64,000 nucleotides of DNA, from the NCBI RefSeq assembly GCF_001677475.2, contig NZ_CP015229.1, one strand, 5' to 3'. The stretch comes from Escherichia coli (lineage in GTDB: Bacteria > Pseudomonadota > Gammaproteobacteria > Enterobacterales > Enterobacteriaceae). Shown one piece after another: positions 23,801 through 29,800 of this stretch; position 1 is the first letter of the stretch; the number at the start of each line of letters is the position of its first letter. Position numbers: made by a program.

Positions 23801-26800
23801 AGCAGACATAAAATGTGCCCGTCAGTTAACTGTAACAAAGAATGATACACCGTCTGCTCTGTGATAACTGTTCATATAACCATTTCTTTATATTGCTGAA
23901 TTTACAAAAAGTCGCAGTTATTAGTCGTATTTATTCCGAATTGAAATCATCCGTCATATAAAATAAAAAAGAATAACAATAATAATCTTCTACCCTTATC
24001 AGTACCTTTACTGCTGTGCTCCAACACAGCAGTTTTTTTGATTATGCTCACATATTTTTCATCCCCACCGCACTGCACATTATAACTGTTGCTTTTCAAT
24101 TCAGGCTTTGTGCAGGTATGTCTGAATCTCCTCCGGGAGAGGTCTTCATCGTTATCAGCCCCAAAACACACCAGCGACACTGACAAAGAGCCTGCGAGTG
24201 CAGTTGCCCCGTTTTCGTTTTATGATGTATTCACCCAGTCAAATAATGAGCAAATTCAATCCATGTCAGACGGCAGAGAATCATAAAATTTAACCATCGT
24301 GCTTACATAAACAATCCGATAAAGACTTAACATACTTAAAATCGCATATTGCATAAGAATAAATAATAAGTCATCAAAAAACATCGGGCAAAACTACCGC
24401 AACTCCAGTTAAAAAGACAATATATTAATCCAGCGACCTCATTTATTATTCAGAAATGCTTAACAATAAGATATTTCCTGTTATTCCTTTATGGAGATCG
24501 GGTAACTGCTCCATGCCAGTCTTGTTGAATGGCTCAAAAAATAAGAGAATAATTCATAACATATATTGTAATTCAGGCTCGGTTATTTCGAATTGAATAC
24601 TTGCATTAAAATCTGATAAAAAATTCGTCATAACAACAACATTCTCTTCTGCATGTGCCATAACCTGCCGTAACAACCCGGCAGGTTTTTTTATTGAATA
24701 AATTTCCGGTTTCTTCCACCATCGCACCGGCCAGGCGACTATGAGGGGACAACGCCGCGCTCCGTTAACGCAGTAAACCCCGGTGTGTATCGTTTTTGAT
24801 TATCCCCGCACACTCGCGCAGAGGAGTCTCCCTGTCGGGCTGCGGTCTCTGTTAATACGGGAATACGGCGACAATACCGCGCATGGATAATAAGGTCGCT
24901 CAACACACTGGCTGTAATGCAGCCGATACCATGCGGCATTTAGCGGCATTCATCGTACACTCAACGGTTAGCTCTTCATTCGTGGCATTCACCTGAAAGA
25001 TCCGGGAGTGTAATTGCGTACATTTACCACTGAACGAACCTTCAACAAGAACACGACCACGCTGCAAAATACGGAACAGAATTGTTCCCTGAAAAGGCTT
25101 TACGGTTACCAGTAATTTCTTCATGCATTCTCCGGATAACAAAAATACTAGTTAATACACTGAGTGCGGATATATTCCTGCGCCCCTTCCAGCTGCTTCT
25201 GCATCATCATCAACCGCTCTCTGAGAGTGAAATAATCCCGTTCAACTGTGTCTGCCAGTCGGGGGCCGGTTGCATTATCCACGCCGGAGGTGCCGGTGGC
25301 TTCACGCACGGTACCGGAGCAGGTGGCGTTGATCCGCAGGCGCTTACGACCAGCGGCAACATCAGCACGCAGAGTTTCATTTTCAGCTCTCGCATCGGCT
25401 AATTCCCTCGAGTATCTGGCATCAAGTGCAGCGACATCACGCTGGCGTATCTGCATATCAGTAATTGTCGCGTTCGCCAGCTCCAGCTCTCTGACTTTTT
25501 TATCGCGCTGCGCTTTGTAGGTGATGGCGTTATCGCGGTAATGATTCAGCCCCAGACCAAGCGCACCACAGGCTACCAGCAGGACAATAATCACCACACA
25601 CAGAACACGGTTCATATCCCCCTCACCCCAGCATCCCCGACGAAGACAACATCATCCAGCCTAAGAGCAACCAGCATTAGTGAAAATGAAATGCCGACGA
25701 TTACACAGAGGATCTTCGCCAGCGTTATGAGCTTGTCTGACATGCTTAATCCTCTTCACGATTTCAACGCAATGACCAGTTTTGCCAGCCCATACAGCAT
25801 CGGAGACACAGCAATACCGACCGCCACCCACTTAATAGCAAAAGCCAGCGCTCTGCTGATGTCATCAGTTACAGGCGCTTTCAGTTCAAGGCCGTTTTTC
25901 ATAGTCAACCTCAACAGAATTCGTTTATACTTTTCCATGTTCTCCCTTGCCTTATCCAAGGTCAGAAACACAAAACCCCGCTTGCTGCCAACAAACGGGG
26001 TTTTACTTTTATTCACTTAGGTTTTGCCAGTTCGCAGGATTTCGTGTTATCCGTCCGCGTTGGTCAACGTCATTTTTCAGCAAAATATTCTGCTTATCTG
26101 TCGATTCCCCAGCACGCCAGCGCGCTCTCCTGGTCACGACGGGATATCTGACCGTAACAGTTGTTTGAGCGGATACGGCAGTCTCTGCCACCGTCCTTAA
26201 TCCACCAGCGAATCGCTTCACACGCTCCCCTGCGATCGCCTGCATTAATTCGTTTATAAAACGTCGACGGGAAACACTTACCGGGGCCAATGTTATACGG
26301 GCAGAATGACGCGATCCCCGCTTTCTGGGGTTCAGTCAGTGGCACTTTGATGTTTTTCGCCACCCATGCCAGCGCCTTATCACGTTCAATGGCGTTAACC
26401 CGGTCGCATTTTTCCTTTGACAGCTTCATGCCAGGAATAACAGGCTTACCATCCACCCGGGTGGCTCCACGGCAGATGGTCCAGATCCCCGCACCATCAC
26501 GGTATGCCGTGGTGTGGTTACCTTCCTTTTCATCCAGAAACTGGTCGAGGATTTCAGGCGCAGGCGCAACTGCGGCAATCAGCGCCAGAACGGCAGCCGA
26601 CAGACCGTATTTGATTTTGGTGTTCATGGATATTTATCAGGATTTATCGGTTCCGAATCCCTGGATATGTTAAGTCTTCAGCCTGCCAGTGGTGGGCACT
26701 GGTGTTTTACCTGATGGCTGAAATATATCTGACAATTCCCGTCGAGGATTTAGCAATGTATAACGATGAACATAAATATACCGCCTGCATGCAGGCCATG

Positions 26801-29800
26801 AATGAACAATTTAAATCAGCATTCCTTAAACTCATTCAGCAAAACCACGAAGCAGTAAAATCCATTCAGGCTGAGCCGTATGGACACCTCACACCACCAA
26901 CTCTCGACATTATGTCCAGAATATTAACACCAGCCATGCTTCTACGTCTGAAAGACAATATAAATGACTGGTTAAACGAAGAATTAAACTACCTTGAATG
27001 TGAGTGGGATCATCATTACGCCAAATCACAAAAAGAACGCATCTTCCGTCGATTATCCGGCAACAGATAACGAGCCAGCTTATATACGTCCTTTAAGATA
27101 AGTCAGTCCTGGATGAAACCAGTAAGCCGGCACTTTTTTAAAGGGCGGATTATCAAAATCACGAAGAAGAGCCTCCCGCACAACTGCATCCTTGTCCGCA
27201 CCACTGGCCAGCGCTTCAATCTCAGCAGCTACCTGCAGATATCCCATGCAACGACCAATGCGCTTCATTAGTCCCTGCTTTTTATTGTTCTTCAGGTAAT
27301 CAATGGCAAATTCAATGAGCGCCTCACTGTGCTGGTGCGATGCTGGTGTTACTTTTCCATCTTCACGGATCGTGATATTCCAGTCATCGCTTGTCACAAT
27401 AAAAGATGGCCGATTATCCCCCCATTCCTGGTCTTTATCCGGTGCAGACGCAATAAAATAACGTTTATTGCCTTCCTCTCCGGCACTTTTAACTGTAATG
27501 GAGTACTTTTCTGACAATGCGGTCGGTAAAAACTTTTCCTGCAAAATCTTCGCAAAGGTCCTGCGAGCAATTTTGATGCAATCATCGTAAAACGCTGCTT
27601 CCTGCTCATCGCGGCGTTTTTTTTCATCTTCAGAAACCATCAGCACCGACAGTTTTTTATTCAGTTCAGTGATTTCATTTTCCAGGCAACTTATGCGCTG
27701 ATTCATTTCTTCATGGTTCATCGTCTACTCTCCCCGCGCCGCCTTACGCCGGTCTTCTTTAATTTTGAAATACAGGTTCGTCAGGTACGTCAGCAGACCA
27801 AACAGCAGACTCCCCAGCACGCCTATTGCCACCCACTGGGACGGAGAGACTTTGTCCAGCAGCTGCAGTAACCAGTATCCCGTCCCCACCGCTGACGTGG
27901 TGTATGACACACCTGTTGTGATTTTTTCCATCTGGTACATACCCCGTCTCCCGTTATCCGGAAGCTGACAACAATAAAAAAGCCACCCGTTAATTACTGA
28001 TGGCTCTGATGCATAAACGTCATCATTCCTGACCGTTATGATTGACAATGGTTATCATTTTTATATAAAAATACTCCCGATATGTGTTACATATCATTTC
28101 TCCACGGGGAATATCCCCACGCCAGCGTCAGACTCGTTTTCCCGTTCTCTTCTGTGCTGGCGTTTTTTTTATTATGATGTCGGTACATTTATCTCCAGCA
28201 CCAGGCTTTCAATCTCAACACCATACGCGGAATTTTTGGGCGTAAAAAATCCCCTCCGGTGAGGGGATTTGCTTATGTAAACATTTACACTGCTTACCTG
28301 CATGGTGCCGGGTGCCTCCCGGTGAATTCAGTATCAGCACCTGAATCCGCAATTATCCCATATACCTACTTGCTGATTGCCCCTCCGCACAGGGGGATTC
28401 ACCATGCGAGATTTTTTTAACAAATGCTCAGTCTGACAGGCAACTGTCAACTGACTGAATAGTGACACGGATTACACTTGTTACCCACATACCACGAATC
28501 AGGTTATTCTTCAGTCATTATTAAACTGCACTTCAGCAAATCCAGAGCCTGATTCACAGGTATTGGATTTGATTGTTACGGTCATTCCTGTTAACTGTGC
28601 ACTTTGTAACAACGGCTGCAAATTCCACCGGTTAGTCCAGTATTCTTTCCCGTCAACCTTTACAGTAAATGTGTTATCCCCATTATATTTGGAAAACTCA
28701 ATTTTACCTTTAGCACAATCCGCCGCCATTGCATTAACAGAAACCAATGCAAATAAAACCGCCATAAACATCTTCTTCATACTTAACTCCTTTCATTCAC
28801 CCGTTGTATATAATGACTGAGACTTTCTGTTCAGAAAGGCTGCTGCTGTATTACTTTCCCATAATGTATTGTTTATTTTTATAACTGGCCTGTCGCCACT
28901 TATCTGACATTTTGGTTGCATCTCTTCATTCACGTAGCGAACCGAACGCGCCCCCTGATGATGGCAATTCAGAATAACCGCTACAGTACCCAGTATTGCT
29001 GATATATTATTAAAGGATATTCTCCCCACTCTGACACCATCCTCTCCCCGATACTCCGGAAGCACATTGCTGATTCTCCCCCAGTTCAGAGTGAGGTCCA
29101 CGTCTTCCGGCGTCATCGTATAAACAGGAGCAGTTTCAGACAGTGCCAGACGAAATTCTCTCTGTATTTGCCTGAACCGTAAGGCTTCTGCTGTAACAGT
29201 GACAAAACGCAGAACTGCTCTGGATGCATCTCTGGTCATTGTATTACCACTGAACTCCATTAACGCCAGATATGATGAAACCAGTGAGTGACGACTGATT
29301 TGCATTCCGGAACGTTCCAGCGCTGCGACACGTTGCAGCGTGGTATAACTGCTGTCCGTTGTCATGGAAACAGTTGTCACACCGGGCACTGATATATGTG
29401 TAAAATCTGAAAAACGGTAGAAAGTATTTGTGGCCGTATTAACGAACCCGGCCACATATAAATTATTTTGCTCAATAATCAGACGAAGATGGTCAAAACG
29501 CGCCTCATAGATATCAAGCCCTCGGATATCCACAGAAATATAACTACCCGGTGGAGTATGATTAATAACAGATACCGATGTAGCCCCCTGAGATATATGC
29601 TCAAGAGGGGTCGATATTTCTGTCCGTATACTATTTAACGAAGATACATAAGTTTGTTGAGTCGAAAAGTCTATCGTAAATTCCCGGGAATAGGATACCG
29701 AAGAAAAGCCCAGTAACAGGCACAGTACCCATTTAAACAATATACACTTCATATACAGGTATTCCTTTTGGCTGAAGTAATCAGCACCAGACCCGGCGCA

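Follow-up and report, generated by a model that had tools for sequence, protein, structure and literature searches.

The 64,000-nucleotide stretch of Escherichia coli contig NZ_CP015229.1 (assembly GCF_001677475.2) analysed here, called the window throughout, is occupied by a Shiga-toxin prophage whose late genes all lie on the minus strand. Between the genes for its holin, S, and its endolysin, R, both of which are given lysis functions by PHROG, lie two further genes encoding proteins of 213 and 104 amino acids (aa), which we refer to as ORF213 and ORF104. The interval is laid out as follows.

26094-26627, minus strand: endolysin R, with an N-terminal hydrophobic segment of signal-anchor-release (SAR) type (phrog_7, E=2e-62).
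26743-26747, plus strand: Shine-Dalgarno sequence GAGGA of ORF104, read from the sequence.
26756-27070, plus strand: ORF104, 104 aa.
27080-27721, minus strand: ORF213, 213 aa, with its ATG at 27719-27721.
27725-27940, minus strand: holin S, 71 aa, of class II/pinholin type (phrog_9876, E=3e-40; phrog_20, E=1e-33).

The stop codon of S (TAG at 27725-27727) is followed by exactly 3 nt (27722-27724) before the start of ORF213, whose Shine-Dalgarno sequence, GGAG at 27730-27733, lies within the 3′ end of the holin gene, 8 nt from the ATG. ORF213 and ORF104 converge, with 9 nt (27071-27079) separating their stop codons, and 1097 nt lie between the stop of S and the start of R. A first-pass annotation of this DNA had described two convergent genes splitting the lysis cassette at this point; its coordinates and both spacings hold. 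With its start 3 nt past the S stop and its ribosome-binding site inside S, ORF213 leaves no space for a separate promoter, and it lies, as had been proposed, in the late operon.

The two genes are an insertion relative to some cassettes, since in phage 933W the S-R gap is empty and R begins 4 nt past S. In other phages and strains the gap has several different occupants. BP-4795 carries one 114-aa YdfR-family gene and E. coli Ec-U7 a 296-aa YdfR-family gene (YdfR-long) alone, while phage 86 has a 268-aa YdfR-family gene together with an ORF104 homologue. In PhiR12_1 a gene encoding DUF1327 plus a coiled coil faces a convergent DUF1823 gene, and in Stx2_14040 a coiled-coil stub faces an unannotated convergent 210-aa open reading frame (ORF). 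Of 5426 complete E. coli genomes, 2625 contain DUF1327/YdfR DNA. The cassette in the exact form seen in the window is rare: 80% or more of it occurs in only 46 genomes, and its closest match, at 99.9%, lies in a non-Stx prophage of strain GB089. These comparisons show the S-R gap to be a commonly filled, variable accessory slot, of which the interval in the window is one allele in an Stx2g prophage (the toxin subtype is that annotated in the sole complete E. coli genome with a near-identical region). The insert is therefore not the singular one that had been supposed. The first-pass annotation had also allowed that the 213-aa protein might prove to be a conserved lysis accessory of all related cassettes; its relatives are common in the slot, but they are not universal there.

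ORF213 matches phrog_1085 (E=2e-101), over profile positions 117-296 of 296 only. It has no match in Pfam, NCBIfam or PADLOC, PF07041 (DUF1327) being absent in the Pfam search. It is 60-65% identical, across 99% of its length, to proteins of 287-333 aa that do carry PF07041; in homologues of 268-333 aa this domain is placed ahead of sequence homologous to all of ORF213, and in alignment A1 the N-terminal ~115 residues of the long family members are missing from it. Given the phrog_1085 match and these PF07041-bearing long relatives, homology therefore identifies ORF213 as a long YdfR-family protein that has lost its N-terminal DUF1327. The protein is modular, with three parts.

27527-27721, minus strand: residues 1-65, N-terminal coiled coil (AlphaFold2 (AF2) helices 3-27 and 31-64).
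27407-27526, minus strand: residues 66-105, an optional middle ('mid') segment, variably present among family members.
27083-27406, minus strand: residues 106-213, conserved C-terminal domain (C-domain), with the invariant motifs HR(D/N)xII, LGRCMGLLQVAAEIE and DNPPFK..P..W..PG..YL.

The coiled coil is the best-predicted portion of the AF2 model, has I10, L13, I17, L20, L24 and L27 in its heptad a/d register, and is common to proteins that combine DUF1327 with a coiled coil (phrog_2091). Beyond residue ~65 a mixed alpha/beta domain is predicted, so that the earlier description of a 213-aa coiled-coil protein fits residues ~1-65 and not the remainder. Relatives of the C-domain, followed down to 30% identity in alignment A4, include proteins of 192-314 aa and stand-alone proteins of 125-142 aa. 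A Pfam search with the C-domain alignment gave no match, and PDB sequence-profile searches with alignments A3 and A4 gave nothing under E=0.03. The sole PADLOC match of the 296-aa long form of ORF213 (L007) was PbeC, which at E=0.018 is non-significant.

YdfR of the K-12 Qin prophage binds the catalytic half of RNase E through its residues 1-72 and co-purifies with RNA (PMC13232886). This RNase E-binding region is the part that is absent from ORF213, and the literature on DUF1327, on the 'reverse moron' and on HK022 srb yielded no functional study. ORF213 could be read as a YdfR-long gene in decay, left functionless by an N-terminal deletion: experiments on the family concern only the domain that is absent here (PMC13232886), and the copies L019 and L020 are frameshifted. 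We regard this as highly improbable. The ratio of nonsynonymous to synonymous divergence (dN/dS) is 0.30 for ORF213 and 0.23 for its C-domain, intact identical copies occur in at least 13 phage contexts with differing flanks, and forms without DUF1327 recur across lineages, for example the distant 184-aa P0147 and the stand-alone C-domain protein P0153. The frameshift is of 1 nt, falls in the coiled-coil part of ORF213, and is seen in the cassette copies L019, L020 and L069.

ORF104 matches phrog_1853 over its full length (residues 1-103, E=1.5e-45). This family, PHROG 1853, comprises 43 clusters at 90% identity, found in E. coli or Salmonella only and all annotated as hypothetical. Four copies at 67-78% identity keep the reading frame open (dN/dS 0.27-0.49), whereas the other frames have 5-10 stops, and it is open and gap-free against Salmonella homologues at 38-43% identity. 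Judged by these ratios, both ORF213 and ORF104 are under purifying selection. In the NCBI PGAP annotation the plus-strand gene begins at an ATG further upstream and encodes 118 aa; the start conserved among homologues is 26756, which is also the one with a ribosome-binding site. In L061, an insertion of ~0.9 kb between the 5′ end of ORF104 and the endolysin truncates ORF104. AF2 confidently predicts a small, soluble five-helix bundle (pLDDT 85, pTM 0.79), for which fold searches found no significant match in PDB, AFDB50 (uncharacterised relatives only) or the viral structure library BFVD, the other matches being generic helical ones. The remote-homology and structure searches proposed by the first-pass annotation thus gave kinship with YdfR-long/PHROG 1085 for one protein and, for the other, a fold without known relatives.

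ORF213, like ORF104, is predicted to be soluble: both proteins are hydrophilic, with maximum Kyte-Doolittle hydropathies over 19 residues of 0.76 and 0.94, and neither has a transmembrane segment by this measure. No toxin, antitoxin, defence or lysis domain was found in either with PADLOC, NCBIfam, Pfam or the PHROG lysis category, and in PADLOC-DB 2.0 neither ORF213 nor ORF104 nor any of the alternative cargo matched a family (0 in each case). That neither gene resembles a lysis function had been noticed from the sequence, and the absence of a transmembrane segment and of any match to lysis-category PHROG, Pfam or NCBIfam profiles bears this out.

ORF104 is found together with the C-domain. 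All 42 IMG/VR loci with an ORF104 homologue (42/42) have the order holin, C-domain gene, facing ORF104, endolysin. The three Salmonella ORF104 families that were looked up (3/3) each face a convergent C-domain gene of 192-262 aa (E 1e-49 to 1e-54). Among distant C-domain genes, three of the six informative contexts have an ORF104 homologue, 38-43% identical, that converges on the C-domain gene (a seventh context, cut off by the end of its contig, is not among the six), and one of these distant pairs precedes the lysis genes, with the antiterminator Q/HicAB genes on one side and the holin on the other. Synonymous divergence (dS) between the window and Stx2_12E129 is low in the coiled coil (0.14) and the mid segment (0.08) and higher in the C-domain (0.51) and ORF104 (0.55), and the breakpoint falls between the mid segment and the C-domain. 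The matching values of the last two mean that these are exchanged as one block. Where other cargo stands in place of ORF104, the C-domain is replaced too (PhiR12_1, Stx2_14040). At the level of sequence these comparisons show ORF104 and the C-domain to be co-inherited as a block and always adjacent in the loci examined, Salmonella included; the suggestion that the two genes form a linked module is in this way upheld by the 42 IMG/VR loci, the three Salmonella families and the matching dS.

The dependence is one-way. Among the 80 best ORF213-type loci, which were examined for the presence of ORF104, it is missing in 46. A short direct repeat has its left copy, GATTTATCGG, at 26641-26650 (plus strand) and its right copy, GATTATCCGG, at 27051-27060. 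In the loci L088 and L071, which have no ORF104, ...GGCAACAGATAA is fused to GATAAATCC and the last ORF104 codons and the stop remain; with this remnant fused at the direct repeat, ORF104 and its leader have therefore been deleted in those phages.

In Salmonella and related prophage contigs (L144/L145, L133-L136, L139-L143) the pair is observed between antiterminator Q and the holin, usually adjoining HicAB. In L144/L145 it lies directly downstream of two genes, one of 106 aa and one of 270 aa, the latter having faint Pfam matches of Pertussis_S1/Scabin type; this is the position held by stx in Stx phages.

ORF104 is preceded by a conserved leader of ~125 nt, which the start of R abuts. Its elements in the window are as follows.

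26637-26671, plus strand: upstream leader/promoter region, with the dyad TCAGG (26637-26641) / CCTGG (26660-26664).
26643-26648, plus strand: weak -35-like TTTATC.
26666-26671, plus strand: -10-like TATGTT, 7 nt ahead of CAGCC.
26677-26722, plus strand: leader core, with the outer helix TTCAGCC (26677-26683) / GGCTGAA (26716-26722).
26684-26704, plus strand: inner 8-bp hairpin TGCCAGTG-GTGGG-CACTGGTG, within the outer helix.

The order of elements is a TAnnnT hexamer, 7 nt, CAGCC, the 8-bp hairpin, GGCTG and a ribosome-binding site. The window leader and 40 others, 41 in all, were aligned (alignment A6) and have in common the TAnnnT hexamer and the core CAGCC...CCAGTG-loop-CACTGG...GGCTG; the window holds one copy of this core, against 0.02 expected by chance. 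The stems are near-invariant among the 41 leaders and from E. coli to Salmonella, though the Salmonella protein is only ~40% identical; the inner loop varies between 4 and 8 nt across copies, and the few one-sided changes in the stems give G.U pairs on the plus strand only. Alignment A6 shows little or no variation at T50, A51 and T55, the TAnnnT hexamer is equidistant in seven of eight ORF104 lineages, and a purine-rich ribosome-binding site stands at the matching place in homologous leaders. Rfam gave no match at E<=1 in the window at 26400-28100, and only chance-level matches for the full-length L164 leader. We infer a promoter for ORF104 at this conserved leader as a candidate only. The first-pass annotation held that the plus-strand gene would be expressed independently, and this is supported by its own conserved upstream signals in related and distant genomes; far from lacking expression signals there, the gene has a leader that related genomes conserve.

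The leader extends well beyond ORF104. An exact-pattern scan of IMG/VR, whose figures apply among the matches listed, found at least 120 matching stretches, at least 77 of them with the full leader core; of 63 cases, 61 have a start codon 46-52 nt past the hairpin. The cargo behind the leader falls into at least 20 families that share no sequence similarity, all of unknown function in PHROGs; these are small genes from temperate phages of enterobacteria. Phage records with the leader number 26, among them HK97, HK022, ES18, HK633, mEp213 and SPN3UB. The idea that every leader faces a DUF1327 gene was rejected, a recognisable one (E<=1e-3) facing the cargo in 14 of the 77 loci. Most copies have a GC-rich hairpin upstream that would be a terminator for the late strand; the window has the start of R there instead.

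Other readings of the leader were considered and set aside. A plus-strand terminator formed by the hairpin and a T-run (26681-26710) was rejected, the T-run being absent from Salmonella and most other copies whereas the hairpin is invariant. An operator for a dimeric protein at the inner inverted repeat is unlikely with a spacer that varies from 4 to 8 nt. The LexA box has a spacing of N10, and ACTGT...ATCAGG, with CTG-N9-CAG, has the wrong spacing for one. Ahead of the -10-like hexamer, ACTGT-N-ATCAGG and the dyad TCAGG...CCTGG recur among the leaders (A6 columns 8-48); these may be either operator sites or part of a longer RNA. In A6 columns ~105-129 (for example in L174, L162 and L170) an extra helix, GAGG...CCTC or CCGA...TCGG, was judged by eye around the conserved GATGGCTGATTA, a part absent from the window copy; this helix would cross the CAGCC/GGCTG helix and so form a pseudoknot or two alternative structures just before the ribosome-binding site.

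The unannotated 210-aa ORF of the Stx2a phage Stx2_14040 (L003, 2160-2791, plus strand) has an AGGAG ribosome-binding site and stands behind the same leader hairpin. It overlaps an annotated 161-aa coding sequence by ~250 nt, because of which the latter is probably not a real protein in its C-terminal half. L169 has a homologous cargo of 210 aa behind its leader; this cargo (L003/L169) has no PHROG, Pfam or PADLOC match.

Morons carry a promoter and a terminator of their own and are expressed while the prophage is repressed (PMC3594210; PMC2629481). GenBank has the label 'moron product' for HK97 gp22 and 'reverse moron product' for gp23, the two lying between tail genes I and J, and labels HK022 gp22 and gp23 each 'moron gene product'; in ES18, gp24 (DUF1327) faces gp25, a 'possible moron', between tail genes M and L. 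The leader described above precedes HK97 gp23, HK022 gp23 and ES18 gp25. As in the window, the genes of these pairs lie tail to tail, a forward gene in the late direction facing a small reverse gene that follows the conserved leader, and comparison with related phages shows each of them to be inserted in a late operon. ES18 gp24 belongs, moreover, to the DUF1327/YdfR family of ORF213's long relatives (E=1.6e-31). The site differs, the window pair lying between holin and endolysin and the others being flanked by tail genes (I/J or M/L). ORF104 has no sequence relationship to gp23 or gp25, and the forward gene of the window lacks DUF1327 and has a C-terminal domain that those of HK97, HK022 and ES18 lack. 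Their late-strand terminator hairpin upstream of the leader has as its counterpart in the window the start of R, and whereas HK97 and ES18 have annotated terminators, none was found downstream of ORF104. The forward gene also has a counterpart in the lysis region of K-12, where Qin YdfR, like ORF213, stands directly after the holin and before the lysozyme gene. ORF213 is homologous throughout to the C-terminal two thirds of the 287-333-aa members of the YdfR family (PF07041; PHROG 1085/2091), whereas K-12 YdfR (103 aa) has no C-domain and ORF213 no DUF1327. From the shared leader and the GenBank labels we thus interpret the insert as a moron and reverse-moron pair placed in the lysis cassette: judged by sequence and arrangement, the two extra genes are a relocated pair of the type first annotated in HK97, HK022 and ES18.

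The bor gene of phage lambda is likewise a moron adjoining the lysis genes, on the opposite strand. HK97 gp15 is a moron for superinfection exclusion (PMC3594210), and ORF104 can be likened to it as a small accessory gene in a late operon with its own expression signals; such morons are active in the lysogen (PMC3594210), as ORF104 would be. Gp15 and Bor are, however, membrane or lipoproteins, whereas ORF104 is predicted to be a soluble helical bundle and has no sequence or fold similarity to either.

Overall, the explanation we favour, with moderate confidence, is an accessory moron/reverse-moron pair in which ORF104 is the dedicated partner of the C-domain protein. ORF213 would be made late from pR′, along with S and R, and would work in the cytoplasm as an oligomer. 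ORF104 would be an independent transcription unit, probably expressed from the repressed prophage as morons are, and on induction it would be silenced by antisense late transcription reading through terminators. As a dedicated partner it might be a regulator or an inhibitor of the C-domain protein, and such a partnership would explain why every ORF104 is accompanied by the C-domain, whereas the C-domain protein persists after the loss of ORF104.

The two genes might instead be independent neighbours, ORF104 being a self-acting moron for lysogenic conversion, exclusion or defence and ORF213 an unrelated late accessory, with adjacency reflecting recombination history. This is possible, though we think it unlikely. 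The same leader does precede at least 20 unrelated cargo genes, many of them facing nothing recognisable as YdfR; morons of known function, HK97 gp15 for one, work singly in exclusion; and the ORF213-type gene persists where ORF104 is missing. Against independence, ORF104 is always accompanied by the C-domain (in the 42 E. coli loci, the three Salmonella families and the three distant pairs alike), their adjacency outlasts divergence to ~40% identity as well as a move from upstream of the holin into the S-R gap, and a swap of cargo at ORF104 brings a swap of the C-domain.

Several observations weigh against the dedicated pair that we favour. A generic sigma-70 scan gave no promoter for ORF104, the best -35 candidate agreeing at three of six positions. 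No terminator lies within or after the 9-nt gap downstream of ORF104, which counts against a moron because the classical definition expects one; the nearest plus-strand candidate, at 27549-27567, is weak. The leader stems show no double-sided covariation, so that their conservation could reflect a protein-binding site at the level of DNA and not RNA structure. With a facing DUF1327 gene in only the minority of leader loci counted above, the pairing of forward and reverse genes is not universal, and the 46 C-domain loci without ORF104 imply that ORF104 is dispensable. The pairing of ORF104 with the C-domain could also be plain physical linkage, ~10 independent lineages having been sampled. Finally, the AF2 model of ORF213 is of low quality (pLDDT 48, pTM 0.25).

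The first-pass annotation had seen in this layout something compatible with a toxin/antitoxin-like or exclusion module. A toxin-antitoxin-like or abortive-infection module, one protein being toxic and the other neutralising, would suit two tightly linked genes under different expression regimes; the one-way dependence fits an ORF104 that is harmful or defensive with the late C-domain protein providing self-immunity, and neighbouring slots hold such cargo (ParDE and a Panacea-domain gene in strain A34, HicAB in Salmonella). We nevertheless judge it improbable. Type II modules are, like the pair in the window, two small, tightly linked genes carried as mobile prophage cargo, but they are co-transcribed from a single autoregulated promoter, combine a recognisable toxin fold with an antitoxin domain for DNA binding or neutralisation, and co-occur strictly, whereas ORF213 and ORF104 are convergent, with stops 9 nt apart, are not co-transcribed, and in 46 of 80 loci ORF104 has gone while its partner is intact. 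Type I modules have a small hydrophobic toxin; ORF213 and ORF104 are both hydrophilic, and with no membrane segment in either, neither is a type I toxin. Searches of PADLOC, Pfam and NCBIfam gave no profile match of a toxin, antitoxin or defence kind, and ORF213, having no promoter of its own, could not act in an uninduced lysogen. On these grounds the toxin/antitoxin-like part of the suggestion is not sustained, while an exclusion module is possible only by analogy with other morons.

A role in the timing of lysis would have ORF213 regulate, for instance, the pinholin or the SAR endolysin from the cytoplasm, with ORF104 or its antisense transcription tuning the S:R ratio. ORF213 is translationally coupled to S just as R is to S in 933W, members of its family are very common in the S-R slot, and transcription from an ORF104 promoter would oppose late transcription between S and R. 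Yet the Salmonella pair lies upstream of the holin, the analogous pairs of ES18 and HK97 lie between tail genes, the slot of 933W is empty and 933W lyses normally, and ORF213 has no membrane segment; a timing role is accordingly decidedly improbable. Because the proteins lack membrane and muralytic features and the same pair occurs outside lysis cassettes elsewhere, the pair is not lysis machinery. It is accessory cargo, and neither a canonical toxin-antitoxin system nor a known defence system.

Going beyond the dedicated pair, and as a long shot, the leader may be an undescribed cis-regulatory element, RNA or operator, that acts as a shared socket for swappable cargo expressed in the lysogen, across temperate phages of enterobacteria and toxin-converting ones among them, with the facing YdfR-family late gene as its cognate off-switch. 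Speculatively, YdfR, the founding member of that family, would direct the hairpin-bearing cargo mRNA to RNase E decay once the phage turns lytic, and in the ORF104 cassette neutralisation at the protein level by the C-domain would replace that decay. Any tie between the leader and the RNase E- and RNA-binding activity of YdfR is speculative. If true, the arrangement would provide a general self-immunity or silencing logic for prophage cargo.

The remaining features of the region are these.

25148-25615 and 25210-25395, minus strand: Rz and Rz1.
28511-28780, minus strand: stxB.
28793-29752, minus strand: stxA.

At 24000-32000 the window is covered to at least 80% by one of the 5426 complete E. 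coli genomes, that of strain MFDS1022581 (98.3% identity), in which the endolysin is annotated as frameshifted. No obvious Shine-Dalgarno sequence was seen for R in the window at 26628-26650, the minus-strand 5′ region of the gene; CGATAAATCCTGATAAATATCC-ATG at the R start is kept in all variants of the slot, those with ORF104 deleted included. Between R and Rz (25612-26016) are two small minus-strand ORFs, one of 43 aa at 25612-25743 and one of at most 86 aa, with a hydrophobic C-terminus, at 25756-26016, both labelled hypothetical in GB089 and MFDS1022581. With these two ORFs in it, the R-Rz gap is a second occupied cargo slot in the window; in 933W, phage 86 and BP-4795 it holds ant, and in strain A34 Panacea-domain and ParD/RelE-ParE genes.

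An apparent oddity in the lysis cassette of a Shiga-toxin phage is in this way resolved, its two 'hypothetical proteins' being a recognisable, portable accessory unit. The holin-endolysin gap, the R-Rz gap and the interval between Q and the holin are cargo slots, which bears on how differences in gene content among Stx phages are read. Of the by-products, the one of most interest is the leader, strongly conserved and missing from Rfam, that precedes at least 20 unrelated small phage genes; reverse morons may have in it a common regulatory socket. From E. coli Stx phages to Salmonella prophages, ORF104 is paired with the C-domain of YdfR-long proteins, and together the leader and the protein pair give a handle on the role of the reverse morons annotated in HK97 and HK022.

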